The notes below the pieces were generated by a model, which was not told the origin of the DNA, searched no databases, and saw nothing but the letters and a program-made list of their open reading frames with translations. Positions 2,740-18,363 of a stretch of 64,000 nt of DNA are shown here, piece by piece; the first letter of the stretch is position 1; each line of letters begins with the position of its first letter. This DNA comes from Acidobacteriota bacterium (GTDB lineage: Bacteria > Acidobacteriota > Vicinamibacteria > Fen-336 > JAGNNV01), in NCBI GenBank assembly GCA_032127745.1, contig JAQBHL010000225.1, positions 655 through 64,654 of the forward strand, written 5' to 3'. Position numbers and translations under genes: made by a program.

Positions 2740-3807
2740 ATGACCAGCCTTGAGATCGTCCGCCGCCGCCCCGAACACGACCCCGAACTGTTCGCCCTTT
2801 ATGCCGAGGTCTTCGGCGACGGGAACCTGGAGCGGAGTCGAAGGCGGTACGACTGGCAGTATTTCGAGAACCCGAACACGCCAGAGGACGGTCCGGTGAT
2901 CTGGATGGCCCGGGAAGGGGACACTCTTCTGGGTCAGATGGCCACTATGCCTTTTCCGATGTGGTGGGGCGATCGGGAGTTCCGGGCTTCGGCCGGCAAC
3001 GACTACTTCGTGCGGAAGAGCGCTCAGGGCCGCGGGATCGGGATCGCTCTCTCCAACCGGTGGGCGGACGAAGTGGATGTGGCTCTGGCTCTGGGCCTCA
3101 CTCCTTCCTCGTATCCCCTTTTTAGAAAGCTATTTACGGATGTCGGGCCCGTGCCCTCTTTCGTGAAGATTCTCGATCCGGTCGCGGTCGCGCGGAAGAA
3201 GTGGGGCCGGGCCGCTGGAACACTGGCCGGCCCTTTCCTGGGAATAGGCCTGGCTCTCTTTTCGCGGGGTCCAGCGACGCCCCTGGAAGCAGACGTGCGG
3301 CTGGTCGAAAGCTTCAGCGACGAGTATGACGACCTCTGGCTCCGGACTCGCTCGTCTTTCGGCGCCAGCGTCCGCCGCGACGCCCGGTACCTGCGCTGGA
3401 AGTACCTGGCCTGCCCGTTCCGCGATTATCGGGTCCTGGAGGCTCGCCAGGCGGGCCGGCTTTCGGGTTACGCCGTGATTCGGGAAGAAGGGGAGGCAGG
3501 TTTCCGGCGCGGGGTCATCGCCGACCTTTTTTGCGACACCACGGATGTGGCCACCCAGGACGCACTTCTTGCCGCCTCCATCGCAGAATTTTCCGGCCGG
3601 GGACTGGTCCGAGTCGAGGTCTACTGCCTCAATTCCCGTCTAGGGATGGGCCTTCGGCGCCACGGCTTTCGTTCTGGGACCACCGCGGTTCAGTACTGCG
3701 TCGCCTGCCGTGGGACCCCTGACGGTACCGGAGGCCCCAGGTCGGTGCTGGACGATGTCGCCAATTGGAATCTCTTCATCGGCGATGGAGACCTGGATCG
3801 CGCATGA
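2740..3807 (+). CDS. GNAT-family acyltransferase (FemAB-like size, ~355 aa)
   Basis: The acetyl-CoA motif A-like segment RKSAQGRGIGIAL is present. An ATG at 2740 (MTSLEIV) is preferred over the TTG at 2656. The gene is the first of the co-directional glycan operon. Confidence 0.6.
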   Translation: MTSLEIVRRRPEHDPELFALYAEVFGDGNLERSRRRYDWQYFENPNTPEDGPVIWMAREGDTLLGQMATMPFPMWWGDREFRASAGNDYFVRKSAQGRGIGIALSNRWADEVDVALALGLTPSSYPLFRKLFTDVGPVPSFVKILDPVAVARKKWGRAAGTLAGPFLGIGLALFSRGPATPLEADVRLVESFSDEYDDLWLRTRSSFGASVRRDARYLRWKYLACPFRDYRVLEARQAGRLSGYAVIREEGEAGFRRGVIADLFCDTTDVATQDALLAASIAEFSGRGLVRVEVYCLNSRLGMGLRRHGFRSGTTAVQYCVACRGTPDGTGGPRSVLDDVANWNLFIGDGDLDRA

Positions 3808-4784
3808 GTGAAAAGCCTCTCTTCATGGTCGGGGTCGATACGGAGGCCGACGATCAATGGTCCCTTGAGGGCCGAAAGCGGCTCTCGGTCGAAAACGCCC
3901 GTGCGCTGCCCCGTCTGCAGGCCCTGTGCAACGTGTACGGCGTTCGTCCGTCGTATCTCGTCACCCACGAAATGGCCACCCGGGAACCTGCCCGGTCGAT
4001 CCTCCGCGATTTATCGGACTCTGGGCGTTGTGAGATCGGTGCTCACCTGCACCCCTGGAGTTCACCTCCGTATCGCGAGGAAGATCTGGTCGGCCGATAT
4101 CCGAGCCAGTTGGGCGACGCTCTGCTGGAGACCCAGTTGAGCGAACTCACCGAGGCCATACACTCGTCGGTCGGGGTACGGCCGCGGAGTTATCGCGCGG
4201 GCCGCCACGGCTTCGATGGCCGCTCGCTGCGGATTCTGGAGACCCTCGGCTATCGGGTGGACACGAGCGTGGATCCGCTTTTCAACGAAACGCGCAAAGG
4301 GGGGCCGTCCTTCGCGGGGGCTCCGGTGGCGCCTTACTGGCCGAGCCCCGACGATGTGCGAACCGCGGGCGCATCCACGGTTCTCGAAATCCCCGTCTCC
4401 TCGGCGACCACACCCGCCCTGCCCAAGGCCCTGGAGCGGCAATTCGCGTCACTTCCCGCCATTCCCTGGCGGGGGTACCTGAAACGGCTGGGTCTGCGGG
4501 CGGTGTGGCTGCGACCCTCCTATTCGAGCGTGGAGGACGCCAAGACGCTGGCCAGCGCTCTGGTTTCGAGGGGCGTGCCCACTCTGAACATGCTCTTTCA
4601 TTCGAGCGAACTGGCTCCGGGCGGGTCTCCGTACAACCAGAAAGCCGCGGACGTGGATCGCTTCTTCGAAAGACTGGAGGCCGTCTTCGAACACATCATG
4701 AAGCGGATCGGCGCCCGAGGCGTTACCTACATCGAGGGAGCGGATGCGCTTCGGATGAAGCGCCCGGCGACCGCCCAGGGATGA
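3804..4784 (+). CDS. Polysaccharide deacetylase family protein
   Basis: ATGA overlap with the upstream stop. The sequence resembles the NodB/WalW-like polysaccharide deacetylase family (MVGVDTEAD..., ...GAHLHPW..., ...MLFHSSEL). Confidence 0.6.
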   Translation: MSEKPLFMVGVDTEADDQWSLEGRKRLSVENARALPRLQALCNVYGVRPSYLVTHEMATREPARSILRDLSDSGRCEIGAHLHPWSSPPYREEDLVGRYPSQLGDALLETQLSELTEAIHSSVGVRPRSYRAGRHGFDGRSLRILETLGYRVDTSVDPLFNETRKGGPSFAGAPVAPYWPSPDDVRTAGASTVLEIPVSSATTPALPKALERQFASLPAIPWRGYLKRLGLRAVWLRPSYSSVEDAKTLASALVSRGVPTLNMLFHSSELAPGGSPYNQKAADVDRFFERLEAVFEHIMKRIGARGVTYIEGADALRMKRPATAQG

Positions 4785-4797
4785 GATCGATCGCGTC

Positions 4798-5904
4798 TTG
4801 AAGATCCTCATGGTCACGCCGCACCTGCCCCCCTATCAGGCAGCGAATGCGCTATTGCCCCACGTGCTGGGAGTGGAGTTCGAGAAACGAAGCCATGAGG
4901 TCTCGTTTCTCACCTTCAAGACCGGGGATCCTGAGCGAGCGCGCACCGCCTACGTCACGCGGCGAACCCGCTTCCGGGTCACCCGCGTCCCCCAACTTCT
5001 GGAGGCCATGGAGACCCGCCTCAAAGCCCGGCCTCTTCTCGAAGCGGCAGACCTCATCCATGTGCATTCCAACACCTGGATGAACCAGGTGGCGGCGCGG
5101 GCGGCGGTCCGCCTCGGGAAGCCTTACATCCTCACCCACTACGGCACCGAGATATGGCACCACGACGGCCGGAACCGCGCCTTTCGGGAGCTGAACATGC
5201 ATGCTCGGCACACCACGTTCTACAGCGCCGGTCTTCTGGCCCGGGCGCGCGAACTGGAGGTGCCGATCCGCGAGGCCTCGGTGGTCTATCCCGCGGTGGA
5301 CCTCCTCTTCTCGCCCCTCGCCACCGCGGAACGGAACGCTGTGCGCGCGCCTTTGCTCGGCTCCGGCGAGTCACTGCTATTCAACGTCAAGCGCCTTCAT
5401 CCCCTCGCCGATCACGCGACCCTCCTGCGCGCTTTCGCCCTCCTGGACCCCTCGCGGGCCCGGCTAAGGCTGGTCATCGCGGGCTCCGGGGACGAGCGCG
5501 AGTCCCTGGAATCGCTGGTCCGGGAACTGGGGGTTGCGGGTCGGGTGCGATTCCTGGGCCTCGTGCCCAATGGTGAGGTGGCGAAACTCCACGCCGCCGC
5601 GGATCTATTCGTCCTCTCCTCGCGGCTCGAGGCCACCCCCACCGTGGTTCTGGAGGCCCTGGCCTGCGGAACGCGCGTGGTCTCGACCGACAATCCGGGC
5701 GGGCTCGAACTGGGCGAAATGTTCCCCGACGATCTCCGGATCGTCCCCCGGGAGAATCCCCAGGCCCTGGCCGATGGCATTGCCGCCGCATTGCGGGAAA
5801 ATAGGCGGATCAGCGAAAGAACTTCCCGGGTCATAGACGAACGTTTCTCGCTTCGCGGGCTCGTCGATCGCTATGGCGAGATCTACCAGAGCGCCCTGCG
5901 ATGA
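4798..5904 (+). CDS. Glycosyltransferase family 4 (GT-B, retaining)
   Basis: The C-terminal GT4 signature EATPTVVLEALACGTRVVSTDNPGG is present. The TTG start is from the ORF track; an ATG at 4810 is an alternative. Confidence 0.8.
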   Translation: MKILMVTPHLPPYQAANALLPHVLGVEFEKRSHEVSFLTFKTGDPERARTAYVTRRTRFRVTRVPQLLEAMETRLKARPLLEAADLIHVHSNTWMNQVAARAAVRLGKPYILTHYGTEIWHHDGRNRAFRELNMHARHTTFYSAGLLARARELEVPIREASVVYPAVDLLFSPLATAERNAVRAPLLGSGESLLFNVKRLHPLADHATLLRAFALLDPSRARLRLVIAGSGDERESLESLVRELGVAGRVRFLGLVPNGEVAKLHAAADLFVLSSRLEATPTVVLEALACGTRVVSTDNPGGLELGEMFPDDLRIVPRENPQALADGIAAALRENRRISERTSRVIDERFSLRGLVDRYGEIYQSALR

Positions 5905-6740
5905 GAGCGATCGACAACCACGCCATCCGGGCCGCGGGGGAGATCCGCTTCCGCAGCGAATACGATTACGCCCTTTTCGAATACCTCCGCAGTGCCAAGG
6001 TGATCCTCGCGGTCGAGCGTTCGGGGGTGAAGCTGCGGGGCCGGGTCCTTGACGCGGGCTGTGGAAGCGGCGGAACTGCGCTGTCCATTGCCGAGGAGGT
6101 GTCCTTCGCGGTGGGTCTGGACCTCTCGCCAAGGTTTTCGGACTCCGGCACCCGGCTGGCCCGCGAAAAAGGCATTCGGAACGTGGCCTTCACCCAGGGC
6201 GATGGTTTGAAGCTTCCCTACGCCAATGAGTCCTTCGACGTGGTTCTGTCTCATTCCGTGATCGAACACCTGCCCTCGGCCGAGACCTACATCGCCGAGT
6301 GCGCCCGGGTGTTGAAGCGGGGCGGCCGGTTCTACCTCTCCACCGCGCCGACCCTCTCTCTGGCCGGCGCGCACCTGCCCCGGCTTCGCCTTCCCGTTCC
6401 CATCCATCTGTTTCTCGGCCGGAAGCGGGCCTTTCGCGTCTTTGTCTTCCTGGCCGCCCGGGCTCCCTGGACGCTCAAAGAGCGCTCGAGCGCCAACACC
6501 TTCGTGAAGCTGGCCGAATCGGGACGAGAGAAGGAAGACGATCTGCTGACCCCGGTGACGCTCCGCGGCATGTCCTCCTGGATCGCACAATCGCCTTTCA
6601 AGCTGATCGCCGAACAGCGCACCGTGACTGGCTTCTTCAAGCGGGTGATCCCGGGATTCCTGCGCGGCTTCTTTCTGGCCATTCCGGGGGTGGGGGATGT
6701 GATGGTGTCCCAGATCGAATGCGTCCTGGAGAGACCGTGA
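5901..6740 (+). CDS. Class I SAM-dependent methyltransferase
   Basis: Motif I VLDAGCGSGGTAL and ...FDVVLSHSVIEHL are present. ATGA overlap with the upstream GT4. Confidence 0.8.
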   Translation: MRAIDNHAIRAAGEIRFRSEYDYALFEYLRSAKVILAVERSGVKLRGRVLDAGCGSGGTALSIAEEVSFAVGLDLSPRFSDSGTRLAREKGIRNVAFTQGDGLKLPYANESFDVVLSHSVIEHLPSAETYIAECARVLKRGGRFYLSTAPTLSLAGAHLPRLRLPVPIHLFLGRKRAFRVFVFLAARAPWTLKERSSANTFVKLAESGREKEDDLLTPVTLRGMSSWIAQSPFKLIAEQRTVTGFFKRVIPGFLRGFFLAIPGVGDVMVSQIECVLERP

Positions 6741-7924
6741 CCCCTCATCCCGCCATCGTTCTGTTCGCGGACATCCGCTTTCCTTCGCCGCGTGCGAACG
6801 GCATCCAGGTGGTGAAGACGGCTCACGCCCTGGCCGCGCGAGGCCTCGAGATCCGGCTCGTGGTCCGACACTCCGACCCGCGGCCCACCGCAGACATTCT
6901 CGCCGGTTTCGGGGTCGATCCCCCTCCCCGCCTGGTCGTGGACCGGCTGAAGGTCGGGCACGCTCCGAACGCGACCCTGGTTCCACGCCTGCGATATCTG
7001 GCCCGGGCTTTTCCGCTGGCCCGGCGAGCCTCGCGCCAGGGCGCTTTCGTTCTGACCCGCGATCTTCAGCTTGCGGATCTTCTGCTTCGCATCGGCTGCG
7101 ACCGTCTCACCTACGAAGCCCACGCGGTCGAGGCCATCATGTACGACGAACGCCAGCAGCTCTACCATCTCGCGGCGGGGCCGAACGCATCCAAGCGGCG
7201 CCGGATCGAAGGCCGGGAGCGTCGGGTATGGATGGGCGCGCGGGGCTTCATGGCCACCACGGCGGGCATTCTCGCCACCTTCGAACGCCTCTTTGGCCCC
7301 CGCCCTCGCACCGCGGTGGTCCCTAACGGTTGCGACATCCTCGCCGATCGAACCTTCACCCCTCCATCCGAGGAACAACGCGTGGTCTACGCGGGCCAGC
7401 TCTATCCCTGGAAAGGTGTCGACGTTCTGGTTCAGGCCTTCTCCCGGCTGACCCGCGGCGAGCTGGTGATCGTGGGCGGTCTGGCCGGCGAGAGCGACTT
7501 CGATCGCATCCAGAGCCTGGCCCGGAGCCTGAACCTGGGTGATCGAATACAGTTCAAGGGCTCGCTGCCCCAGAAGGATGTGGCCGCGGAGCTCGCCCGG
7601 GCCACGGTTGCGGTGGCGCCTTTCCTGAAGAGCGCCATGACCTCCGACCACACCTCGCCCATCAAGGCTTTCGAGGCCATGGCCGCGGGACGGCCCCTGC
7701 TCATCTCCGACACCGGCGCTTCGCGCGAGATCGTGGAGGACAGCCGCACCGGGCTTCTGGTTCCTCCCGGGAATATCGAAGCCTGGGCGGCGGCGCTTGA
7801 GAGGATCCTGTCCGATCGCACGCTTCAGATGAACCTCGGCCGAGCGGCCTTTGAAAAGGCAACCGAGTACTCCTGGGCCCGACGGGCCGAGCGAATCGAA
7901 CAATTCATCGGAGCGGCCGCTTGA
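6719..7924 (+). CDS. Glycosyltransferase family 4
   Basis: The GT4 C-terminal domain (FEAMAAGRPLLISDTGASREIVED) is present. The start is either the ATG at 6719 or a GTG at 6737 that overlaps the upstream stop as GTGA. The long in-frame 5' extension from 6299 is rejected. Confidence 0.75.
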   Translation: MRPGETVTPHPAIVLFADIRFPSPRANGIQVVKTAHALAARGLEIRLVVRHSDPRPTADILAGFGVDPPPRLVVDRLKVGHAPNATLVPRLRYLARAFPLARRASRQGAFVLTRDLQLADLLLRIGCDRLTYEAHAVEAIMYDERQQLYHLAAGPNASKRRRIEGRERRVWMGARGFMATTAGILATFERLFGPRPRTAVVPNGCDILADRTFTPPSEEQRVVYAGQLYPWKGVDVLVQAFSRLTRGELVIVGGLAGESDFDRIQSLARSLNLGDRIQFKGSLPQKDVAAELARATVAVAPFLKSAMTSDHTSPIKAFEAMAAGRPLLISDTGASREIVEDSRTGLLVPPGNIEAWAAALERILSDRTLQMNLGRAAFEKATEYSWARRAERIEQFIGAAA

Positions 7925-9255
7925 ATCGGGGAACCACTTTCGCGTTCCTGGTCGCGAGCGTCCTGACCCTGGCCCTCGTCTCCACGAAGATCCGGGGAGC
8001 GGACGAGATCGAATATTTCTCGCACCTGCGTTCCGTGGTCTTCGATCACGATCTCGACTTCACCAACGAGTACGAACATTTCTATCGAGCGGACCCCGGG
8101 GGTCTTCAGGCCTTCAAGGAGACGTTCCTGGATCGGCGAGAGCCGCGGACGAACCGGCCCATCAATTTCGCGCCCATCGGTTCGGCCCTGATCTGGGCGC
8201 CGTTTTATCTCGCCGCTCACGCTCTGGTCACCAACGGGGTTCTGCGCGGTCCCGCGGATGGTTTCTCCACCGCCTACACCGGTGCGGTGGCCTATGGTTC
8301 GGCGCTCCTCGCCATTCTTGGTTTCCTGCTCGCGTTCCGAACCCTCAAACGCCACCTTGGAGTCACCGAGGGACTGGCCCTTTTCTCTGTGCTGGCGGTC
8401 TGGTTTGGAACCCCCGCCTTCTACTACATGACCGTGGCCCCGGCCTTCGCCCACGCGCCCTCGATCTTCGCGGTGTCGCTGCTGTTTTTCTTGTGGCTGC
8501 GAGCCCGGGAAAAGGACAGGGTGTTCGATTGGGTTCTCATGGGTCTGGCCGCCGGCCTGGCCATGCTGATCCGCGAACAGGGAGGCTTGTTCCTGATCGC
8601 GCCGGGACTCGATCTGGGATTTCGCCTGATCCAGGGCGACGTCAACCGCGCGCTCAAACGCGGAGCCTCCGTCCTGGGCGCGGCCGGCCTCGCTTTCCTG
8701 CCCCAGTTGCTGGCCTACCACTCCCTCAACGGGACGTACGGACCCACTCAACTGGTTCAGAGGAAGATGGACTTCGGCTCGCCCCACTTCCTCGACGTGC
8801 TCGTGAACCCCGGCCACGGCCTGCTCCTCTGGACGCCTCTGTTGATCGTGGCCTTCTTCGGCCTGGGACGGGCCCTCTTCCGGCTCGGGGCGCTCGGCGT
8901 ATTCTCGAACGCGGCGCTTCTCGCTCAGATCTATATCAACGGCTCGGTCCTTTCCTGGCATCAGGCCGGGGCGTTTGGCTCGAGACGCTTCGTGGACTCC
9001 AGCGTGCTCTTTGTCATGGGCTTCGCTTTTGGTCTGATGGCCTTCACTCCCCGAGTCCAAAAACTGGTGGTCGTTCTCGCAATCTGGTGGAATATCTCTC
9101 TCATGATGCAGTTTGGTTTGAAACTCATGGATCGTCAGCAACTCGACTGGCCGGGGGTGGCTATCCGGCAGGTGAGCGCGGTGCCTCAGCGCATCCTGAA
9201 CACCGCGAAGCTCTACTTCACCGATCCCGAAGCGCTGGTTAAGAGCACTCGATGA
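7921..9255 (+). CDS. Polytopic membrane protein, GT-C fold (ArnT/PMT-like) glycosyltransferase candidate
   Basis: TTGA overlap start. There are at least 10 hydrophobic helices. The first extracytoplasmic loop carries ADEIEYFSHLRSV, which resembles the DE-x-x-Y motif of ArnT/PMT-type GT-C enzymes. Confidence 0.5.
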   Translation: MNRGTTFAFLVASVLTLALVSTKIRGADEIEYFSHLRSVVFDHDLDFTNEYEHFYRADPGGLQAFKETFLDRREPRTNRPINFAPIGSALIWAPFYLAAHALVTNGVLRGPADGFSTAYTGAVAYGSALLAILGFLLAFRTLKRHLGVTEGLALFSVLAVWFGTPAFYYMTVAPAFAHAPSIFAVSLLFFLWLRAREKDRVFDWVLMGLAAGLAMLIREQGGLFLIAPGLDLGFRLIQGDVNRALKRGASVLGAAGLAFLPQLLAYHSLNGTYGPTQLVQRKMDFGSPHFLDVLVNPGHGLLLWTPLLIVAFFGLGRALFRLGALGVFSNAALLAQIYINGSVLSWHQAGAFGSRRFVDSSVLFVMGFAFGLMAFTPRVQKLVVVLAIWWNISLMMQFGLKLMDRQQLDWPGVAIRQVSAVPQRILNTAKLYFTDPEALVKSTR

Positions 9256-10394
9256 TCCACCCCGATTGGATGGCGCAGTTCGCCTGCCCGGTGTGCCTCG
9301 ACCGGCTGGGGTGTGAGAAGTGCGGAGTCAAGACCGGAGGCCACGATGTCTGCGTCGCCTCCTATGCCGCGCGAGTGTCGTGCCCCTGCGGCGGCCCCGA
9401 CAAGCGGGCCCTCGAGCATCGAGGCGAGGGTTTCTATTGCTCCTGCTGTCTCACCCGCTATCAGTTCGGACCCTCGCGCGACTACGTCGATCTTCTGCCC
9501 CGCGCCGAGGTGGGCCGGGTGTCGCACTACGCCGATGAAGAGTTTCAGGAACGACTCGGCGTCCGCGAGGGGCCGCCCGTGCTCTCGGCCGGGGTCAAGG
9601 CGAAGATGGTCTCCAGGATGCTGGGCCTCAAGCCCGGCGATTCTGTTCTGGATCTGGGCAGCGGGGCCGGAAAATTCGCGGCCCACTTCGCGAACAAAGG
9701 CGCGTCCGTCTGCGGCATCGACATGGCGCCGTTCTTCCTGAAATCCGCCATCGACTCGGTCAATCTCGTGGTCGGCGATCTGAGACGGCTTCCCCTGAGA
9801 AAGGGCGCCTCGGCCCGCGCCTACTCGCTCGACGTCCTCGAACATCTCGATGAGGCGGGGGTTCGCGAAGTCCTGATCGAGGCCCGCCGGGCGGTGTCGA
9901 AAGAGGGCCGGATCTTCGTCTACACCCACGCCATGGAGTCTTCGAGGATCGCCTCCTTCCAGCGCGGCGTGAACACCCTCGCCAAGCGTCTCGGCCGCAT
10001 GGGCCTGGTCGACTCGGAGAAGGAGGCGATGCGCAAGAGCGATCACATCAACGCCATCAGGTCGCATGAGCACTTCGACGAGATCGCAAGGTCCGCGGGA
10101 CTGAGGGTCCAGGAACGCGTGTACTACAACGTCTTCGCGAAGGCGGTGATCGAGGACCTGGCTCTGAAGATGGTCGAGCAGCGCCGCGGCAAGAAATCCG
10201 CGGCCGGACCAGGCGCCGCGAAGGCGGCCTCGGCGGACAAGTCGGCGAGCCACATCGTGGGACGCCCGGCGCCTTCGAAAAGCGCCCGGTTCGTGGCCCG
10301 AGGCCTGACTCATGTCCTGATGCTGGATGTGGGCCTGTTCGGCAGGGTTCGCACCGGACCCTTTTTCGGAGTTCTGGCGCCCATCGCGTCATAG
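9252..10394 (+). CDS. SAM-dependent methyltransferase with N-terminal Cys-rich zinc-ribbon region
   Basis: ATGA overlap. The first 60 residues contain 10 Cys (CPVCLDRLGCEKCG...CPCGG...YCSCCLTRY). The central MT motif I is VLDLGSGAGKFA, followed by ...LDVLEHLDE. Confidence 0.65.
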   Translation: MIHPDWMAQFACPVCLDRLGCEKCGVKTGGHDVCVASYAARVSCPCGGPDKRALEHRGEGFYCSCCLTRYQFGPSRDYVDLLPRAEVGRVSHYADEEFQERLGVREGPPVLSAGVKAKMVSRMLGLKPGDSVLDLGSGAGKFAAHFANKGASVCGIDMAPFFLKSAIDSVNLVVGDLRRLPLRKGASARAYSLDVLEHLDEAGVREVLIEARRAVSKEGRIFVYTHAMESSRIASFQRGVNTLAKRLGRMGLVDSEKEAMRKSDHINAIRSHEHFDEIARSAGLRVQERVYYNVFAKAVIEDLALKMVEQRRGKKSAAGPGAAKAASADKSASHIVGRPAPSKSARFVARGLTHVLMLDVGLFGRVRTGPFFGVLAPIAS

Positions 10395-10409
10395 CTCGAT
10401 TGGGGTCGA

Positions 10410-11543
10410 ATGCGGATTCTGTACGTCGCGTCGGATCAGACGCTTCCCGGCGAGACCGGCGGCAGTGTCCACGTGCACGAGGTTTCGCGCGAACTGTCGA
10501 AGCGGGGCCATGAGGTTCATGCCGTGGTTCAGGACCAGGGCGAGGCGTCTCCCTCTGACCATGGCTATTCGGTCCATCGGATCCGCTGGTGGCCAGGGCA
10601 TCGCTTCTTCAGATTCCGAGCCCGGCCCCAGATCGCCGATCTCATTCGACGCCTGAAACCGGACGTTTTGATGGAGCGCTATTACAACTTCGGCGGCGAG
10701 GGGATCCTTTCCGCCGAGGCCGCGCACATCCCCAGCCTGCTGGAAGTGAACTCTCCCGTGGTGGATCATCCCGGATCGCTGAAGGCCGCGCTCGACACCC
10801 TTCTCGTCACCCGGCCGATGCGACGGTATCGCGAGCGCCTGGCCCGATCGGCCTCCGCTCTGATTTCGCCCATCAAGGAGATCGTTCCCGAGTTCGCACG
10901 GGCCAAGACTCAGGTCGTGACCTGGGGCGCCAACATCGAGGCCTTCCATCCAGGAAGACGCAGCACGGCGCGACGCCAGAGCTGGGGCGCCTCTGAGGAA
11001 ACATGCGTGGTTCTCTTCAGCGGATCTCATCGGCCCTGGCATGGAGTCGAAACCCTGCTGGCTGCCGCCCGTCGACTCCAGGGCCACAAGGCCCTGGTCT
11101 TCGTGCTGGCCGGCGGCGAGCGGGCCTTCGTGGCCACGGACTTCAATGGGCGCTATCTGGGACGGGTGCCTTACGCGGACATGCCCGAAGTCACGGCCAG
11201 CGCCGACCTTTCGGTGGCGCCCTATGACCGTTCGCAACTGCGCTCGCTGAAACTCGGCTTCTTCTGGTCGCCCCTGAAGCTATTCGAGGCCCTCGCGAGC
11301 GGCGTGCCCACGATTACTCTGGACATACCACCCCTTCACGACATCGTGCGAGCGAACCAGGAGGGCGTCTTCTTCAAGGAGAACGACGCGGAGGATCTGG
11401 CCCGGGCCATTGCCGCGCTGGCGAGCGATCCCGAGCGGCGTCTCCGGCTGGGTCGAAACTCCAGAGGGCGAGCGCCTCAGTTTTCATGGGCCGCCCATGC
11501 CGCCCAGGTCGAATCGATTCTCGAAGGCATCCGGGCGGCATGA
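10410..11543 (+). CDS. Glycosyltransferase family 4
   Basis: The N-terminus MRILYVASDQTLPGETGGSVHVHEVSREL is typical of GT4. The C-terminal domain contains ...FEALASGVPTITLD. Confidence 0.8.
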   Translation: MRILYVASDQTLPGETGGSVHVHEVSRELSKRGHEVHAVVQDQGEASPSDHGYSVHRIRWWPGHRFFRFRARPQIADLIRRLKPDVLMERYYNFGGEGILSAEAAHIPSLLEVNSPVVDHPGSLKAALDTLLVTRPMRRYRERLARSASALISPIKEIVPEFARAKTQVVTWGANIEAFHPGRRSTARRQSWGASEETCVVLFSGSHRPWHGVETLLAAARRLQGHKALVFVLAGGERAFVATDFNGRYLGRVPYADMPEVTASADLSVAPYDRSQLRSLKLGFFWSPLKLFEALASGVPTITLDIPPLHDIVRANQEGVFFKENDAEDLARAIAALASDPERRLRLGRNSRGRAPQFSWAAHAAQVESILEGIRAA

Positions 11544-12709
11544 AGATCACCCTCGCCACCGAAGTCTTTCCCCCCCGGGCCGGGGGCGCCGGCTGGTCGA
11601 CCCGGGCCCTCGCTCTGGGGTTGCGCGATGCGGGCCACGACGTCAGCGTGATCACCACGGCCGAGGGGCCGGCGCAGGAGGGGAAGGTGCCGGTGCTTCG
11701 AATCGCGGGAGCATCGGGCGCATTCCGGCGTGGGCGCATGGTGGAGACCTTCCGAAAAGCTCTGGCCGAACGAGCGGGCGATGCCGACGTGATCCATGCC
11801 CAGCACTCACTGTCCGCCCTGGGGACCCTGGCCCTAAAACCCCGCCCGCGCGCGGTGGTGACGGTGCGCGATCACTGGCCGGTGTGCTTCTGGTCCACCC
11901 GCATATCGCAGGGAAAGCTCTGCCCTCGGTGCTCGACCGGAGGCATGTGGCGATGCCTCGACGGCCGACTCCCCGCCCTGAGCGCTCCCGCCGCCATCCC
12001 CTACATGAAATGGGATCTCGCCATCAAGCGCGGCGCCCTGGCCCGCGCGGACGCCACCATCGCGGTGAGTGAGTCGATCGCGGCGGAGCTGCGGGCGGCC
12101 TTGATCCCGTCGGTCCACGTCCTGCCGAACATCGTGGACGCGGTGGAAGCGAACGAGATCGCGAATCAGACCCCCCTGATCTCTCTCCCCGATCGATTCA
12201 TCCTCTTTGTGGGAAAGCTCGAAGCGAACAAGGGAGCGGGCGATCTGATTGAGGCGCTGGTTCGCTCAAAGGCGCGCCTTCCCCTGGTGGTTCTCGGAAG
12301 CGGCGCTTCCGAGAGGGCGATCCGGGAATCGGCTCAGAAGGCATCGGTCGAGGTTCATCTCCCCGGCTGGACCGACCGTGCCGATGTCCTCCGGGTCATG
12401 AAACGGGCGGAGGCTCTGTTGTTCCCCTCGACCTGGCCCGAGCCTCTCTCCCGCGTTCTTCTGGAGGCTCTGGCCCTCGGAACGCCGATCGCGGCCATGG
12501 ATACTGGGGGCACCTCCGAACTGATCGAGCACGAGATCTCCGGCCTGCTGGCTCACGGCGTGGATCAGCTGGGCGACGCTCTCGGCCGGATCGTTCATGA
12601 TGCGTCGGTGCGCTCACGACTCAGGGAAGGGGCGGCCTCCCGGGCGCGGGCGTTCTGCCCTGAGGTTCTGATCCCTCACTACGAGGCCTTGTACCGGGGT
12701 TCGAACTGA
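11540..12709 (+). CDS. Glycosyltransferase family 4
   Basis: ATGA overlap. The sequence MKITLATEVFPPRAGGAG...EPLSRVLLEALALGTPIAAMDTGG is GT4-like. Confidence 0.8.
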   Translation: MKITLATEVFPPRAGGAGWSTRALALGLRDAGHDVSVITTAEGPAQEGKVPVLRIAGASGAFRRGRMVETFRKALAERAGDADVIHAQHSLSALGTLALKPRPRAVVTVRDHWPVCFWSTRISQGKLCPRCSTGGMWRCLDGRLPALSAPAAIPYMKWDLAIKRGALARADATIAVSESIAAELRAALIPSVHVLPNIVDAVEANEIANQTPLISLPDRFILFVGKLEANKGAGDLIEALVRSKARLPLVVLGSGASERAIRESAQKASVEVHLPGWTDRADVLRVMKRAEALLFPSTWPEPLSRVLLEALALGTPIAAMDTGGTSELIEHEISGLLAHGVDQLGDALGRIVHDASVRSRLREGAASRARAFCPEVLIPHYEALYRGSN

Positions 12710-13911
12710 TGCGGGTGGCTCTTCTGTCGAGGAGCGCCCATCCGCTCCATCCGCCCGGCGGTATGGAGCGGGCGGTCTATTCGCTGGCCAAGCACCTGCG
12801 CGCCCAGGGTGTGGACGTGACCCTGTTCACCCGGCCGGGGAAGAATCCAGAGTCATTCCCCGGGCATGTGGTGATGGTGAAGTACCAGCGCTATCGCCTC
12901 GGAACCCACGGGCGCGTGCTCGACCGGACCTTCAACTACCCCGCGTTCAGCGCCCTGATGGGGCGCGAGGTCGCGGAGCATGTGCGCCGGGGTGAGGTCG
13001 ACATCGTGGACGCGCAGGGCTTGAGCGCTCTCGGTTACGGCCGCGAGCGACTCCTCGATCCTTCTCTCGATGCGCCTCTGGTCATGAATCCTCAGGGCAT
13101 GGAGGAGCATCACGTGCGAGGCTTCAAGGCTCTCGCCCTCGGCCGGCTGAGACAGCTTTCGAAGGAGGCGGCCCAACTCGCAGACTGCGTGATCGCCACG
13201 GATGAGGCCACCCGGGGCGAGGTTCCCCGGCTTCTGGACGTGAATCCGGGACGAGTTCGAGTCATTCCCAACGGCGTCGATCTCGAGGAGATTCGAGCCC
13301 TCACCCCCGAAGACGCCATGCCCTTCGCCTTTGAGGTCCTGCCCTGGATGTCGACCTGTCGGCCGCTGTTCGTTTCGGTGGGCCGGCTCGAGAGCTACAA
13401 GGGTTTCGCCGATTCCCTCGAAGCCTTCAAGCGCATCGCGACCTTCCTGCCCCGGAGCTGGGGCTGGCTGGTGGTGGGAGAAGGCCCGTCGCGGCGTTCC
13501 CTTCAGGCCGCCGCCTCCGGCCTCACCGACCACATTCAGTTCACCGGCCGGGTCGGCGAGCAAACCCTTCATGCCCTCTATGCCGGCTCCGACGTCTTTT
13601 TGCACCCGACCCGGTTCGAAGGGTCGTCCCTGGTCACCCTCGAGGCTATGGCTCATGGACTTCCCGTGATCGCCACCCGGGCCGGAGGAATTCCGGACAA
13701 GGTGAAGGATGGGGCGAACGGCTTCCTGGTCGATCCGGGAGACGTGGCCGCCCTCGCGACCGCCATCCTCGAGATCGCGAACCAGCCTAAGGAGATGGAG
13801 AGGATGGGACGGGAGTCGATCCAGCTCCTCGAGCCCTTCCTCTGGCCGCAGATCGCCAAGCGGGTGATCGCGCAATACGAACGGCTGCTCCGCGAAAGGA
13901 AGAAACGGTGA
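12709..13911 (+). CDS. Glycosyltransferase family 4
   Basis: TGATG 1-nt overlap. The C-terminal GT4 signature ...EGSSLVTLEAMAHGLPVIATRAGG is present. Confidence 0.8.
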   Translation: MRVALLSRSAHPLHPPGGMERAVYSLAKHLRAQGVDVTLFTRPGKNPESFPGHVVMVKYQRYRLGTHGRVLDRTFNYPAFSALMGREVAEHVRRGEVDIVDAQGLSALGYGRERLLDPSLDAPLVMNPQGMEEHHVRGFKALALGRLRQLSKEAAQLADCVIATDEATRGEVPRLLDVNPGRVRVIPNGVDLEEIRALTPEDAMPFAFEVLPWMSTCRPLFVSVGRLESYKGFADSLEAFKRIATFLPRSWGWLVVGEGPSRRSLQAAASGLTDHIQFTGRVGEQTLHALYAGSDVFLHPTRFEGSSLVTLEAMAHGLPVIATRAGGIPDKVKDGANGFLVDPGDVAALATAILEIANQPKEMERMGRESIQLLEPFLWPQIAKRVIAQYERLLRERKKR

Positions 13912-14645
13912 ATCCGGACGAATACCGGCGGATGGCCGACCTGGAGGGCGTTTCGTGGTGGTACGTGGGCATGCGCCGGATCGCGCGTTCCCTTCTGACC
14001 CCGCTTCTGCCCGCCGAAGCCGGGCCTCGCCGGATTCTCGACGCCGGCTGCGGCACGGGCTGGAATCTTCAGGACCTCTCTTCCATGGGCGAAACCCATG
14101 GCCTGGATCTCTCGCCCCTGGCCGTGCTCGCCACCAGAGGGCGCGGCGGTCGGGTGGTGCAGGGCGATGTGCTCGGTTTGCCCTACGCGTCCGGCAGTTT
14201 CGATGTGGTCACTTCATTCGATGTGCTCTATCACGCCTGGGTCCAGGATGACGCTCAAGCGGTGCGGGAACTGGGCCGGGTGTTGAAGCCGGGAGGATTG
14301 ATCCTTATCAAGGTTCCCGCCCTCAAGATTCTGTGGGGTGCTCACGACGAGGCCGTTCATTCTCGACACCGGTACACCCGAGGCGAGCTGGAAGCCCTGC
14401 TGGAGGCGAGCGGGCTGGCCCTGGTTCGGTCCACCTATGCGAACTCTCTTCTTTTTCCAGTTCTGCTCTCGCGGCGCTTCCTCGACCGTCTCTTGAAGCG
14501 CCACGGATCCGACGTGGTCATGCTTCCTCTTCTGCTTGAACGGGCGTTCGGGGCGCTGCTTTCCATCGAAGCGGCGCTCCTTTCGGCGATCAACCTTCCC
14601 ATCGGCGCGAGCGTGTTCGCCATCGCCCGAAAGCCGGCCGCATAG
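13908..14645 (+). CDS. Class I SAM-dependent methyltransferase
   Basis: GTGA overlap start. Motif I ILDAGCGTGWNL is followed by ...SFDVVTSFDVLYH. Confidence 0.75.
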   Translation: MNPDEYRRMADLEGVSWWYVGMRRIARSLLTPLLPAEAGPRRILDAGCGTGWNLQDLSSMGETHGLDLSPLAVLATRGRGGRVVQGDVLGLPYASGSFDVVTSFDVLYHAWVQDDAQAVRELGRVLKPGGLILIKVPALKILWGAHDEAVHSRHRYTRGELEALLEASGLALVRSTYANSLLFPVLLSRRFLDRLLKRHGSDVVMLPLLLERAFGALLSIEAALLSAINLPIGASVFAIARKPAA

Positions 14646-14650
14646 AATCG

Positions 14651-15277
14651 GTGGGTCCCTTGGCCAGTGACACCGATATGACGCCTGAAGAATTCGAGAT
14701 GGAACGACGGAAAAGCGCCGAGGCGCTTCGTCGGGTGGCGGAGAACGCCCAGGGAGCGAACGTGGCCCGAAGTGCTGCGAGCGTACTCGGGCCGGTGGAA
14801 GCGGTGAAGACCACGGGGGAGACCGCCGGCCGCCCTTCTGCGGAGCCGCCGGTGTGGAATCCGCCGCCGCCGCCGGATCTGGGCCCGGTGAACGAATCGT
14901 GGACGACGGGCGGCGATCAAGCCCTGGGGAAGCTCGCGGCCCTCGTGGACGGATCTCGCGCCCGGAGCCGCGAGGCCCAGGTCCGGTTCAACTCCGATCA
15001 GGTCCGGCTCGACAACGCCCTCGTCGCCTGGACCGCCGATCATTTCGCCGCCACTCACAAGCACTACGATGCGGCGATCGCCTCCATGCAGAACCGGATG
15101 GACGACATCGATACCCGCCACCGCGAACTCGAAGCCGAACTGGTCCGCCATGTTCACGAAATGGCCCAGCGGATCGACGTCGTGCTGGGCGAGGGAGAGA
15201 AGGGCCGGGTTTCCCATGAAGCGGCTCTGCGATCGCTTCGTGACCGCCTGCGCCTCATCGAAGAGAAGCTCGGTTGA
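14651..15277 (+). CDS. Hypothetical coiled-coil protein within the glycan operon
   Basis: The ORF sits 5 nt after the upstream stop, and the next gene starts with a TTGA overlap at its end. No catalytic motif was found. The C-terminal half has heptad-like repeats rich in Glu, Leu and Arg. Confidence 0.45.
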   Translation: MGPLASDTDMTPEEFEMERRKSAEALRRVAENAQGANVARSAASVLGPVEAVKTTGETAGRPSAEPPVWNPPPPPDLGPVNESWTTGGDQALGKLAALVDGSRARSREAQVRFNSDQVRLDNALVAWTADHFAATHKHYDAAIASMQNRMDDIDTRHRELEAELVRHVHEMAQRIDVVLGEGEKGRVSHEAALRSLRDRLRLIEEKLG

Positions 15278-16323
15278 GCCCCCGGGTCCTGATCTGCGCG
15301 GCCCAGGCCCCGTTCATCAATGGCGGCGCGGAGATGCTCGTTTTGTCCCTGCAGCGTGAGTTGGTACGCCGCGGTTTCGTAACCGACGTGGCTCAGGTTC
15401 CCTTCAAGTGGTACCCGCCCGAGGAGATCATCCGGCAGGCGCTGGCCTGGCGGCTTCTCGATGTGACCGAGAGCAACGGGGCGAAGATCGATCTGGTCAT
15501 CGCCACGAAGTTTCCGACCTTCCTGGCCGAGCATCCGGGCAAGGTGGCGTGGATCTTTCATCAGCACCGCGAGGTCTACGACCTCTTCGGCACCGAATAC
15601 TGTTCCTTCACCGACTCGAAGGAACACCGCGAGATCAAGGACGCCATCCACTCCCTCGACACGAAAGCACTGTCGGAGTGCCGGGATCGTTTCACCATCT
15701 CGAGAACCGTGTCCGACCGGCTTTTGAAGTTCAATCAGATCGACTCCACGCCGCTCTACCCCCCGCCGCCTCACGCGGGACGGTATCGATTCGAGACGCT
15801 CGGCGACTTCCTGCTCTTCGCGGGGAGGCTGGACCGGCTGAAGCGGGTGGACCTGCTGATCGAAGCCCTGGCCCACGCCTCGACCGAGGTCAGGCTCAAG
15901 ATCGCGGGTCGGGGACCGCTCGAAGCCTCCCTCCGAGAACTGGCGGAGCGGCGCGGGGTCGCGGCGCGGGTCGATTTCCTGGGCTTCGTCTCGGATGAGG
16001 ACCTGCTGACCCTTCTCGCCACCGCGCGAGCCGCGGTCTACACCCCGGTGAACGAAGACTACGGATACGTGACCCTGGAAGCCTTCCTCTCGGGCAAGAC
16101 CCTCATCACCACGAATGATACGGGTGGAGTTCTCGAGTTCGCGACCACCGAGACCGGCTTCATCGCCGAACCCAGCCCCCAGAGCCTGGGAGCGGCGATG
16201 AGCCGGGCCTGGAACACCGCGCCCGCTCGACTCAAGGACATGGCCGAAGTCGGCCGGAAGAAAGTGGCGCCCATCCAATGGGACGCGGTCATTGATACCT
16301 TGACGGAAACGATCCGATCGTGA
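15274..16323 (+). CDS. Glycosyltransferase family 4
   Basis: TTG start. The N-terminus ICAAQAPFINGGAE and the C-terminus EDYGYVTLEAFLSGKTLITTNDTGG are GT4-like. Confidence 0.75.
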   Translation: MSPRVLICAAQAPFINGGAEMLVLSLQRELVRRGFVTDVAQVPFKWYPPEEIIRQALAWRLLDVTESNGAKIDLVIATKFPTFLAEHPGKVAWIFHQHREVYDLFGTEYCSFTDSKEHREIKDAIHSLDTKALSECRDRFTISRTVSDRLLKFNQIDSTPLYPPPPHAGRYRFETLGDFLLFAGRLDRLKRVDLLIEALAHASTEVRLKIAGRGPLEASLRELAERRGVAARVDFLGFVSDEDLLTLLATARAAVYTPVNEDYGYVTLEAFLSGKTLITTNDTGGVLEFATTETGFIAEPSPQSLGAAMSRAWNTAPARLKDMAEVGRKKVAPIQWDAVIDTLTETIRS

Positions 16324-17654
16324 CCGAACAGAGAAAGCTCGACTCAAAAGGCCTGGCGGTCGAGGTCTGGTCGCCTCTTCCCCCTCTCGAATCGGGCGTC
16401 GCCGATTATGTCCATGAACAGTTGGATGTCCTGGACCGCCTTCTCGATCTCACCCTGGTGGCCGAGGATGAAAGCCGGGTCGATGAGGGGATACGGAAGC
16501 GCTATCGCGTGGTCTCGAAGGACCGGAGCGACGAGACGAAACTGCGCGTCTATCACATCGGCAATTCGCCTCTCCACGCCTTTGCCTACCGCGAGGCCAT
16601 CCGGGTCCCGGGGGTGGTGATCCTGCACGAGTGGAACCTCCACGAGTTGCTCCTCGGCTTCGCGGTGACCGCCAATGACTTCGACGGGTATCGGTCCTTG
16701 ATGCGCGGTGAGCACGGCGCGCGCGGCTCAATCGCGGCCCAGACCGTAGCGTCGGCTCTGGGAGGGCGTCATTGGACCAGTGTCTTTCCCTTAAACGCCG
16801 AGATTCTCGATGGCGCTCTCGCCGTGGTCTGCCTCTCCGCTTCCACCGCGGCCAAAGTCGCCGCCCGCCGCATCGGCGGGCCCATGCTCCACCTTCCCCA
16901 TCACGCCCTCCTGCGCTCGCGGGCGACCAGCCGATCGGAGGCTCGAAGAAGGCTCGGTCTCGATTCCGAGGCGCGAGTGGTTCTGGCGCCGGGCCTCGCC
17001 ACCGCGTCCAAGTCCCTCGACGCGGCGGGCCGCGCGATGGAGCTCATCCGCCCTCGAGTTTCTGGTGCGGTGCTCGTCACCGTGGGCGGCGGGGCCCGAA
17101 TCGAACCCGCCCCGGCGAAGGGCCTGGCCATCCAGCAACTGGGACGCGTGGATCTTGAAACCCTGGGCGACGCTCTGCTGGCCGCGGATGTCGTGCTGGC
17201 CCTGAGGTTCCCGAGCCGGGGCGAGACCTCCGGCGTTTTGATGCGCGCGCTGGCCGCCGGTCGGGCCGCCATCGTGTCCTCGGGCTCGACCGCCGACGCG
17301 GATCTACCCGAGGGCGTGGTGGCGCGAGTCAACCCCGGGCCCGCAGAAAGCGAAGAACTCGCCGCCCTTCTGGAGTTCCTTCTCAATGACGATGGCTCGA
17401 GGCTTCGTCTGGAAAGGCTCGCCGGGGCCACCGCGGCGCAGCGTGGATTGGAACCACTGACCGAGCGGTTGACGGGCTTCCTGGTTGAGGTGGCCAAAGA
17501 CCGGGCCTCTTTGGAGGCGGACATCAAGAAGCGCGGCCGCCGAGCTTCGAGACTCCACTCCCGGTTCCGGAACGAGGTGGAGGCGGCCAGCGCCGGCCTC
17601 GGTCTCGCCCGCGTTCCTTCCGGCGTCTACGACCGACTGGCCGGGCTTCAATGA
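16320..17654 (+). CDS. Glycosyltransferase, divergent GT4/GT1-like
   Basis: GTGA overlap start. The C-terminal half shows the ...GETSGVLMRALAAGRAAIVS pattern. The N-terminal half is unusual. Confidence 0.55.
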   Translation: MTEQRKLDSKGLAVEVWSPLPPLESGVADYVHEQLDVLDRLLDLTLVAEDESRVDEGIRKRYRVVSKDRSDETKLRVYHIGNSPLHAFAYREAIRVPGVVILHEWNLHELLLGFAVTANDFDGYRSLMRGEHGARGSIAAQTVASALGGRHWTSVFPLNAEILDGALAVVCLSASTAAKVAARRIGGPMLHLPHHALLRSRATSRSEARRRLGLDSEARVVLAPGLATASKSLDAAGRAMELIRPRVSGAVLVTVGGGARIEPAPAKGLAIQQLGRVDLETLGDALLAADVVLALRFPSRGETSGVLMRALAAGRAAIVSSGSTADADLPEGVVARVNPGPAESEELAALLEFLLNDDGSRLRLERLAGATAAQRGLEPLTERLTGFLVEVAKDRASLEADIKKRGRRASRLHSRFRNEVEAASAGLGLARVPSGVYDRLAGLQ

Positions 17655-18346
17655 GTGTCTCCCTCTCCGTGGTCATTCCGGCGTTCAACGAGGAGCGGCG
17701 CCTCCCGGGAACGCTCTCCGCCATCCTGCCCTATCTTCGGGCCCGGGGCGAGACCTTCGAGGTCGTGGTGGTGGACGATGGATCCACCGACCGTACCGCG
17801 GATGTCGCGGAGCAGGCCGGACCCGAGGTGAGGGTTCTCAAGAACCCCGGAAACCGGGGGAAGGGCTACTCCGTTCGGAATGGAATGTTGAACGCCCGAG
17901 GTGAGTGGCGCCTGATGTCCGACGCCGATTTGTCAACCCCTGTGGAGGAACTGAAGCGGCTCGAGGCGGCGATCAGAGACGGCGCAGAGATCGCAATCGC
18001 GTCACGGGCGGTGTCGGGCGCCAACCTCGAAAAGCGGCAGTCGATCCTGCGGGAGAGTTCAGGACGGTTCTTCAATCTCCTCGTCCGGTGGCTGCACCTG
18101 CCCGGAATCATGGACACTCAGTGCGGTTTCAAGCTGTTCTCCGCGGCCGCCGCCGAAGCGGCCTTCCGAGATTCGAAGCTCGACGGCTTCGCCTTCGATG
18201 TGGAGGCTCTGGTGCTGGCGAAGAAGGCCGGATTCAGGATCGTCGAGGTGCCGGTGACCTGGCGGAATGACGAACAGTCGAGGGTCAGCTTCGGCCGGGG
18301 TCTTGCCGCCTTCGTGGATCTGTTTCGTTTGCGCTTCCGCCCCTGA
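17651..18346 (+). CDS. GT2 polyprenyl-phosphate sugar synthase (GtrB / dolichyl-phosphate glucosyltransferase-like)
   Basis: ATGA overlap. The sequence SVVIPAFNEERRL...VVVVDDGSTDRT...DADLSTP...QCGFK is the GT-A signature. Confidence 0.8.
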   Translation: MSVSLSVVIPAFNEERRLPGTLSAILPYLRARGETFEVVVVDDGSTDRTADVAEQAGPEVRVLKNPGNRGKGYSVRNGMLNARGEWRLMSDADLSTPVEELKRLEAAIRDGAEIAIASRAVSGANLEKRQSILRESSGRFFNLLVRWLHLPGIMDTQCGFKLFSAAAAEAAFRDSKLDGFAFDVEALVLAKKAGFRIVEVPVTWRNDEQSRVSFGRGLAAFVDLFRLRFRP

Positions 18347-18363
18347 GCGCGGCGCCACCCGGC

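Follow-up and report, generated by a model that had tools for sequence, protein, structure and literature searches.

What is made by fifteen glycan-modifying genes packed into one co-directional run, with no gene for glycan priming or export among them? The question arises from a 64-kb stretch of DNA (the window, i.e., the whole stretch that was analysed; G+C 65%) from an uncultured Vicinamibacteria lineage (Acidobacteriota), which carries 15 open reading frames (ORFs; g1-g15 in Table 1) on its + strand between positions 2740 and 18346. Our favoured answer, to which we give about an even chance of being right, is that this operon makes a conserved, membrane-associated, methylated cell-envelope glycan, with priming and flipping encoded elsewhere. 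The observations behind this answer are the domain families of the encoded proteins, their predicted localisation, the co-linearity of g1-g10 among related loci, and a promoter with a leader RNA in front of g1.

Operon structure and class-wide gene order

All 15 ORFs show coding-type G+C at third codon positions (0.70-0.83; ORF listing and GC3 analysis), and the same 15 genes had been called independently on an identical NCBI contig from a metagenome-assembled genome (MAG), JAQBCY010000079.1 (GCA_032124695.1). Ten of the 14 junctions between them are 4-base overlaps, one (g9/g10) is a 1-base overlap, and three are short gaps (13-25, 15, and 5 nt). Overlaps are therefore found at 11 of 14 junctions and not at 12 of 14, as had been stated in an earlier note on this DNA, whose central claim of one tightly coupled glycan-assembly operon nevertheless stands. 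The families that the note listed are present as named, with one correction: there are 6 clear family 4 glycosyltransferases (GT4) and one divergent enzyme, not seven and one (the list as given adds up to 16 genes). Except for g6, none of the products has a signal peptide or a transmembrane (TM) segment. A scan of positions 2000-19500 for consensus sigma-70 promoters and terminators gave counts not above those of shuffled sequences, and is uninformative on internal transcription units. When all 15 proteins were compared with NCBIfam, each match fell far under its curated cut-off, so that no named system applies; this agrees with the earlier note, which saw in the operon the best candidate of the window for an undescribed system, and our literature search found no paper on Vicinamibacteria glycosyltransferase clusters. 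None of the enzyme families is new, and uncharacterised glycan operons of large size are common. The operon unites modules of normally separate systems, namely serial GT4s accompanied by methyltransferases, a polyprenyl-phosphate module that resembles Arn, and a deacetylase-tandem GNAT pair.

We then turned to other genomes, a comparison that the earlier note had proposed. A scan of GTDB species representatives with two short peptide patterns yielded 39 loci, all from uncultured Vicinamibacteria or Acidobacteriota save one labelled Actinobacteria; it returned only MAGs, and absence from cultured Vicinamibacteraceae is not implied. By tblastn, genes g1-g10 stand in the same order in essentially every sufficiently long locus, with 45-90% amino-acid identity, except in a few loci where the set is reduced or broken (L040, L046, L034, and L008). 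Because this order recurs in about 40 independent MAG loci, the arrangement is not due to chance. O-antigen and capsule islands are strain-variable; judged by its class-wide gene order, this appears to be a conserved housekeeping glycan locus and not a variable O-antigen island. Such a pathway of 10-15 genes in constant order is probably a major, uncharacterised part of the cell surface of Vicinamibacteria. These bacteria are abundant in soil, and their surface bears on soil aggregation, desiccation tolerance, and recognition by phages and predators.

Two clades can be told apart around this core. In the window clade (13 loci), the arrangement is a tetratricopeptide repeat (TPR) protein gene (- strand), g1-g15, and then, all on the - strand, a gene for a small periplasmic protein, bamA, and tamB. 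Orthologues of g6 share 75-86% identity in many Vicinamibacteria-labelled MAGs and about 50-57% in further Acidobacteriota MAGs, the latter level marking a sister clade. There, two loci (L026 and L030) have the core followed by g11-g15 and the bamA neighbour, and in many others (variant B) g12-g15 are replaced: after the core come a g6 paralogue of 660 aa, a protein of flavin amine-oxidase type, a third membrane glycosyltransferase of the GT-C fold (~590 aa, weak PMT_2 match), and g11, which makes three GT-C genes per locus (L004 16020-20316, L006 16026-21125, and others). The most conserved gene of the operon is g13 (84-90% identity within the window clade). A search of metagenomic proteins with the g2 profile retrieved 2,100 sequences at E<=0.001. 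As a separate observation, in L008 (4100-10004) the g1/g2 region is fragmented into small ORFs and g5 is split in two (171 and 180 aa), which could reflect decay of the core cluster or sequencing errors.

Table 1. Features of the 64-kb window and of three related loci, with coordinates and assignments (GT, glycosyltransferase; SAM, S-adenosylmethionine; CE4, carbohydrate esterase family 4)
Feature	Position	Strand	Assignment and details
g1	2740..3807	+	Tandem-GNAT acyl-CoA N-acyltransferase, predicted to be cytoplasmic, 355 aa; neither TM segment nor signal peptide
g2	3804..4784	+	Predicted cytoplasmic CE4-type (NodB-fold) de-N-acylase, 326 aa
g3	4798..5904	+	GT4; start TTG 4798 or ATG 4810; Glycos_transf_1 1.8e-31 and Glyco_transf_4
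g4	5901..6740	+	Class-I SAM methyltransferase, 279 aa; Methyltransf_11 2.2e-23
g5	6737..7924	+	GT4; Glycos_transf_1 2.7e-32
g6	7921..9255	+	GT-C polytopic membrane glycosyltransferase, 444 aa; PMT_2 41.4 bits (cut-off 26.1)
g7	9252..10394	+	SAM methyltransferase, 380 aa; Methyltransf_11 1.2e-11, residues 133-222
g8	10410..11543	+	GT4 (Pfam)
g9	11540..12709	+	GT4 (Pfam)
g10	12709..13911	+	GT4 (Pfam); final gene of the universally conserved core g1-g10
g11	13908..14645	+	Class-I SAM methyltransferase with hydrophobic C-terminal tail
g12	14651..15277	+	No family, 208 aa; Pro-rich N-terminus; C-terminal half looks helical, possibly coiled coil
g13	15274..16323	+	GT4-type; only C-terminal domain recognised, Glycos_transf_1 1.1e-25
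g14	16320..17654	+	Divergent GT-B/GT4-like, 444 aa; weak Glyco_trans_1_4, 28.7 bits (cut-off 27)
g15	17651..18346	+	Soluble GT2 of polyprenyl-phosphate glycosyltransferase type, 231 aa; Glycos_transf_2 2.9e-28; no TM helices
Inverted repeats	2450..2481	+	GTGA-N6-TCAC (2450-2463), overlapping TCACGAAA..TTTCGTGA (2460-2481)
Sigma-54 -24/-12 promoter	2497..2512	+	TGGCACGCCGGTTGCT, directed at g1; predicted transcription start near 2523
Leader RNA	2520..2660	+	~135 nt, structured, ends in intrinsic terminator
TPR protein	132..2351	-	Divergent, 739 aa, one N-terminal TM segment; Pfam TPR families; system membership uncertain
tamB, bamA, and 206-aa protein	18364-25542	-	Operon convergent with the glycan operon; tamB 1297 aa, bamA (Omp85/POTRA) ~900 aa
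11-TM protein	32929-34890	-	653 aa, about 11 hydrophobic segments; no Pfam family (best E=0.04)
Topoisomerase I part	45631-46761	-	Toprim and Topoisom_bac positions 2-155
Topoisomerase I part	44232-45902	-	Topoisom_bac positions 157-405 and zinc ribbons
FabA	L049 9497-9925		Next to cluster head
FabH-like KAS III	L040 7696-8727	-	Next to cluster head
GT2 fused to CapK-type adenylating enzyme/ligase	L050 7742-9946		Abuts g1

Enzyme content and the proposed glycan pathway

In the pathway we favour, g3, g5, g8, g9, and g10, together with g13 and g14, would each add a different sugar at the cytoplasmic face and thereby yield a defined hetero-oligosaccharide on a lipid-linked acceptor. The GT4 paralogues share only 23-34% identity with one another, and each therefore probably forms a different linkage. 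The closest solved relatives of g10 are BshA, MshA, and PimB', and the divergent g14 had no NCBIfam match. The oligosaccharide would be O-methylated at the membrane surface by g4, g7, and g11. By our reading of its sequence, g7 has a Cys-rich (zinc-ribbon-like) N-terminal extension and a hydrophobic C-terminal tail; g11 is 41% identical to g4 across the methyltransferase core, and searches of solved structures with g4 and the other methyltransferases returned generic class-I relatives only, with no sugar-specific assignment. The product of g12 matched no Pfam or NCBIfam family, and its orthologues are syntenic and 39-76% identical. Weak Pfam matches to "GT4-conflict" families had raised the idea of a defence system, which was dropped as much stronger generic GT4 matches cover the same stretches.

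GT4s, several SAM-dependent O-methyltransferases, and an acyltransferase, together and with no exporter, recall the mycobacterial polymethylated polysaccharides, i.e., methylglucose lipopolysaccharide (MGLP) and methylmannose polysaccharide (MMP), and the earlier note had drawn this analogy. By such a route the GT4s would polymerise a glucan or mannan that is then methylated and decorated with acyl groups, the product staying in the cytoplasm, and g10 does fall distantly into the same broad GT4 group as the mycobacterial enzymes. The cytoplasmic MMP pathway, however, is encoded by a 4-gene cluster of MeT1, the hydrolase MmpH, pMeT3, and a single alpha-1,4-mannosyltransferase, ManT (PMC9883506), whereas the operon has 15 genes, no glycoside-hydrolase domain by Pfam, and 6-7 diverse GT4s, whose mutual distances fit a defined hetero-oligosaccharide and not the work of one polymerising enzyme. 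Neither do the GpgS (GT81) and GH57 features of the MGLP cluster recur: no operon protein matched GT81 or GH57 in Pfam or NCBIfam, the same two databases detected no MmpH-like hydrolase, GH57 branching enzyme, or GpgS, and no MMP methyltransferase was among the solved-structure matches listed for g4. Moreover, these polysaccharides are made wholly in the cytoplasm without a membrane transferase, whereas the polytopic g6 (part of the conserved core) and g15, of polyprenyl-phosphate glycosyltransferase type, are integral to the operon. The hydrophobic tails of g7 and g11 and a Wzx flippase near the sister-clade clusters also argue against a cytoplasmic product, which we consider very improbable; the other proposal of the earlier note, a methylated glycolipid or glycoprotein pathway, is the better of the two when placed at the envelope.

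At the envelope, the favoured pathway would continue with g15 loading a sugar onto polyprenyl phosphate and, after flipping, with g6 transferring this sugar on the periplasmic side to the exported glycan, much as Arn, Lgm, and Gtr modules do. The nearest solved relatives of g15 are all polyprenyl-phosphate glycosyltransferases (Pyrococcus furiosus DPMS, 5mlz, 3e-19 over residues 2-205; ArnC, 1.7e-14; and GtrB), and its residues 91-95 read DADLS where the class motif is DADLQ(D/N/H) (PMC12690121). ArnC and GtrB carry two C-terminal TM helices that g15 lacks. The g6 protein contains at least 6-7 hydrophobic segments, and an acidic pair directly behind the first of its TM segments, D28-E29, is invariant (alignment A1); this position is the usual site of GT-C catalytic acidic residues. 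In the Arn system ArnD deformylates the ArnC product before flipping and ArnT transfer (PMC12690121), and LgmABC puts glucosamine on Bordetella lipid A (PMC4993483). The operon agrees with these modules in part: it has a GT2 of the type that charges polyprenyl phosphate (g15), and its g2, of CE4 fold with ArnD among the best fold matches, and g6, a PMT_2-family GT-C, may be counterparts of the other two components. It differs in that no ArnE/F- or GtrA-type flippase and no ArnA/ArnB-type sugar-nucleotide enzymes are found in it, and in that g15, g2, and g6 are embedded among 6-7 GT4s and three methyltransferases, with g15 outside the universal core.

A priming enzyme and a flippase would have to come from elsewhere in the genome. 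The earlier note saw no initiating or export genes in the operon, and the domain scan agrees: Wzx, Wzy, ABC exporter, and phosphoglycosyltransferase domains were all absent from the ORFs scanned across the window, and no ABC_tran or ABC2_membrane domain indicative of Wzm/Wzt was found in these ORFs or in the related loci. There is no small multi-TM ORF in the operon that could be an ArnE/F- or GtrA-type flippase, and elsewhere in the window a single ORF comes into question (39314-39709; 131 aa, 3 TM segments, and a weak DUF4345 match). Only two proteins of the window are polytopic, g6 and an 11-TM protein, unclassified and encoded 14 kb away; a comparison of the latter with the large GT-C of variant B, as a possible paralogue, was negative.

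The missing genes are accounted for if the operon assembles the core of lipopolysaccharide (LPS). The GT4s would then extend Kdo-lipid A directly at the cytoplasmic face and MsbA would flip the product, so that the window clade needs neither a polyprenyl priming enzyme nor Wzx, and g15, g2, and g6 would add an amino sugar in the periplasm as ArnC, ArnD, and ArnT. Rhizobium RgtE with RgtA-D provides a comparable periplasmic sugar addition. The Arn-like trio itself, a class-wide conservation that is typical of core regions, and the conserved position of the tamB-bamA operon (outer-membrane biogenesis) next door are all consistent with this role. Nevertheless, the window and the neighbourhoods of related loci yielded neither a GT30 Kdo transferase nor a GT9 heptosyltransferase, and no lipid A gene or WaaL either; the NCBIfam LPS models score under models of GT4s of exopolysaccharide (EPS) type, and the Wzx link in the sister clade points to a polyprenyl-diphosphate-linked intermediate; for these reasons we regard LPS-core assembly as unlikely.

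This Wzx link comes from 10 distinct sister-clade loci (including L004, L006, L032, L036/L049, L040, L041, L044, and L050), in which a nonulosonic acid (NulO) block lies 3-7 kb upstream of g1 and encodes NeuB, a CMP-sugar synthetase of 565 aa that carries a fused PseG-like domain, a dehydratase/epimerase, and a flippase of Wzx type (Polysacc_synt); in 5 further loci of this clade, the upstream sequence is too short to judge. In L050, all genes from the NulO block through g1 are co-directional. No phosphoglycosyltransferase or Wzy was seen in the sister-clade loci that carry the Wzx-type gene. None of the 13 window-clade loci has the block within the roughly 4.8 kb seen upstream; this clade lost or never had the flippase and NulO neighbours, and carries the TPR neighbour and the leader instead. 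The earlier note had held that its view of the operon would fall if homologous clusters were always linked to Wzx/Wzy or ABC exporters and to a known O-antigen structure. Linkage to a Wzx-type flippase is present in the sister clade and was not seen in the window clade, and no known O-antigen structure is tied to any related locus. Compared with Wzx/Wzy O-antigen or EPS loci and with the O-glycosylation loci of Bacteroidota, the operon shares runs of GT4s with modifying enzymes and, in the sister clade, the nearby Wzx/NulO genes; it differs from Wzx/Wzy loci in having no phosphoglycosyltransferase, Wzy, Wzz, or WaaL, in being class-conserved instead of hypervariable, and in having no Wzx near the window clade.

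Sister-clade neighbourhoods of this kind bring protein glycosylation into consideration, since the general O-glycosylation loci of Bacteroidota likewise place methyltransferases, nonulosonic-acid genes, and a Wzx flippase beside GT genes. A methylated oligosaccharide would be built on a polyprenyl carrier, flipped, and moved to envelope proteins, with g6 and the larger variant-B paralogues acting as a protein glycosyltransferase like the protein mannosyltransferases (PMT) or as an oligosaccharyltransferase. The match of g6 to PMT_2, a protein mannosyltransferase-type family, and the conserved TPR neighbour would suit this scheme. PMT_2, however, is broad and also takes in ArnT-like lipid glycosyltransferases, and g6 is short (444 aa) and without a large periplasmic or TPR domain, which leaves this explanation with only a small chance.

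At the head of the conserved core, the translationally coupled g1 and g2 would handle acyl groups: g2 would remove an N-acyl group from an amino sugar, and g1 would then acylate an amine. The Pfam matches are a marginal one to GNAT for g1, whose orthologues carry PF13508, PF13527, and PF00583, and one to CE4 under the cut-off for g2. Against solved structures, both the single sequence and the profile (A2) of g1 gave only marginal GNAT matches; with g2 the single sequence gave nothing informative and the family profile a weak match to the chitin deacetylase 2y8u (E=8e-4). AlphaFold2 models confirm the two weak assignments at the level of predicted folds. The g1 model (pLDDT 86) is a tandem GNAT with best folds in the Eis-like 2hv2 and in N-myristoyltransferases (E about 1e-13), and the g2 model (pLDDT 83) is a CE4-type barrel with best folds in HP0310 (3qbu), the mycobacterial deacetylase 3rxz, and Salmonella ArnD. 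ArnD (8t0j) is fifth among these matches (E=3.8e-9, TM-scores 0.52/0.61), behind HP0310 and 3rxz. GH57 folds reached TM-scores of only about 0.5, and CE4 fits better. In the alignment, D12, D16, D17, H81, H83, and H266 of g2 are invariant and stand at motif-like positions.

The same pair could imply a self-anchored lipo-oligosaccharide, in which the GT4s build a GlcNAc-containing chain that g2 de-N-acetylates and g1 N-acylates with a fatty acyl group, by the logic of NodB/NodA or LpxC/LpxD, giving a membrane anchor without polyprenyl priming. The position of the pair at the head of the core, the cytoplasmic location of g2 (like NodB), and the resemblance of the g1 fold to long-chain acyl-CoA N-acyltransferases speak for it, as do the acyl-handling genes that directly adjoin g1 or g3 in three sister-clade loci (L049, L040, and L050; Table 1) and hint at an unusual acyl donor for g1. 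These neighbours are anecdotal, though; the N-myristoyltransferase match (TM-score about 0.57, r.m.s.d. about 7 Å) is generic to tandem GNATs, and Eis-like acetyltransferases score equally high. We therefore give a self-anchored product a small chance, no greater than that of protein glycosylation.

Another parallel to the membrane-associated glycan we favour is found in the mycobacterial phosphatidylinositol mannosides, lipomannan, and lipoarabinomannan, which are made by the cytosolic GT4s PimA and PimB', an acyltransferase, Ppm1, and GT-C enzymes such as PimE. Here too, cytoplasmic GT4 steps on a membrane lipid, without a phosphoglycosyltransferase and with an acyltransferase, would precede a GT-C step fed by a polyprenyl-phosphate sugar, and PimB' is among the solved relatives of g10. 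Unlike that pathway, the operon includes methyltransferases and a CE4 enzyme, nothing points to phosphatidylinositol as its acceptor, and its host belongs to another phylum with a diderm envelope (BamA and TamB). Candidates for the final acceptor of the glycan are lipid A-core, another lipid, or protein.

Several points weigh against the favoured pathway. We infer the lipid-linked, exported nature of the main chain, for which no acceptor, priming enzyme, or flippase has been identified. Searches of solved structures with g6, as a single sequence and as profile A1, found no GT-C relative and no similarity to ArnT; g2 matches the folds of other CE4 enzymes at least as well as that of ArnD; and g15 is missing beside the 10-gene core in variant-B loci. 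Between g1 and the NulO block of the sister clade lie genes that are unrelated or on the opposite strand (cytochrome c peroxidase, malic enzyme, SodC, and DinB), and the Wzx and NulO genes of the block may serve another pathway. Finally, the promoter described below is of the sigma-54 type, and no Sigma54_activat domain (AAA+ enhancer-binding activator) was found in the scanned window ORFs; the cognate activator could be encoded elsewhere.

A sigma-54 promoter and a leader RNA in front of g1

How is the operon expressed? The 400 nt upstream of g1 were aligned from 11 window-clade loci (alignment A6), and the block at 2450-2660 is almost invariant at the DNA level, whereas the adjacent proteins are only 70-88% identical. 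At its upstream end, inverted repeats with conserved half-sites and a variable spacer form a candidate regulator-binding site. The element that follows, TGGCACGCCGGTTGCT, is a perfect sigma-54 element and the single match to TGGCAY-N5-TTGCW in the 64 kb (0.04 expected); the motif occurs once per locus and at the same position in 13 related loci, and its columns are invariant in alignment A6. Transcription would start from this promoter and pass through a leader RNA with an intrinsic terminator. Because the sigma-54 promoter is followed by a leader that ends in a terminator, expression is probably under an enhancer-binding activator and conditional read-through.

In the leader, a closing stem encloses a loop that contains the CCCUCC motif twice; further elements are one hairpin at 2570-2585, a second, variable hairpin (CCUCC/GGAGG), and the terminator, a long GC-rich hairpin (2605-2650) followed by the U-run UUUUU (2653-2657). 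Rfam gave no real match, either at the gathering threshold on positions 1-20000 or in E-value mode on 2350-2760. A covariance model of the leader found exactly one copy in each window-clade locus that covers the region, in sense orientation and 80-190 nt upstream of g1; it found none in the sister clade and did not find another in the window. All 16 metagenome contigs that contain the invariant 24-mer of the leader show the order TPR, RNA, g1. Among 27 distinct leader sequences, 99% of cells pair, and compensatory double changes occur at 8 pairs, compared with 0.8 in shuffles and 1-4 in slid controls, although the alignment was fitted to the model and leans towards structure.

Predicted folding of truncated transcripts suggests how read-through might be controlled. 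The GGGAGGG of the terminator 5' arm (2610-2616) first pairs with an upstream CCUCCUC (2590-2596; -27.6 kcal/mol), and the full terminator fold then prevails (-49.9 kcal/mol); the CCUCCUC/GGGAGGG helix is thus predicted to form before the terminator 3' arm is made and to compete with the terminator. In the most divergent copy (L009), which has a textbook terminator, the U-run ends 22 nt before the g1 ATG, and because this leaves no room for another promoter, g1 of that locus must be expressed by read-through. In most loci, a spacer of roughly 80 nt between terminator and g1 could hold a second promoter. Most simply, therefore, the element is probably a sigma-54-driven attenuating leader, and its RNA may also act as a small RNA.

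The leader is like sigma-54-dependent small RNAs and terminator-containing 5' leaders (attenuators and riboswitches) in its -24/-12 promoter, its short structured RNA, and its Rho-independent terminator. It differs from known attenuators and riboswitches in belonging to no Rfam family and in serving one operon in one clade only. Promoter and leader are previously undescribed, and together they make up a candidate new class of cis-regulatory RNA with a clear genetic context. One could go further and see in the whole locus the source of a "common antigen" shared by the class Vicinamibacteria. This would be a lipo-oligosaccharide, methylated and with an N-fatty-acylated amino-sugar anchor made by g2 and g1 in the manner of Nod factors or lipid A, which would do away with polyprenyl priming; its synthesis would be gated by a sigma-54 riboregulatory leader with a CCCUCC/GGGAGG terminator-antiterminator switch. 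We offer this as speculation and assign it little probability.

Neighbouring genes and other features of the window

All 13 window-clade loci, and 14 of 16 metagenome contigs, have the TPR gene upstream of g1, a position that is specific to the window clade. A 655-aa protein occupies the same position in the sister clade, and a comparison of the two as possible homologues was negative. On the other side, the tamB-bamA operon keeps its place beside the 3' end of the glycan operon even in the sister-clade loci L026 and L030, and the 206-aa protein encoded beside bamA carries a signal peptide and weakly resembles the N-terminal domain of SurA (E=0.011).

Further along the window, the topoisomerase I gene (44232-46761, - strand) seems to be divided between two ORFs that overlap in different frames (Table 1); the gene could be truly disrupted, or a frameshift or an assembly error could account for this. 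The region 36000-42000 has an unusually high GC skew (0.08-0.15). Three ORFs on the - strand (37954-39288, 39681-40517, and 40535-41293) belong to no Pfam family and lie downstream of a gene for an extracytoplasmic function (ECF) sigma factor (41340-41945).

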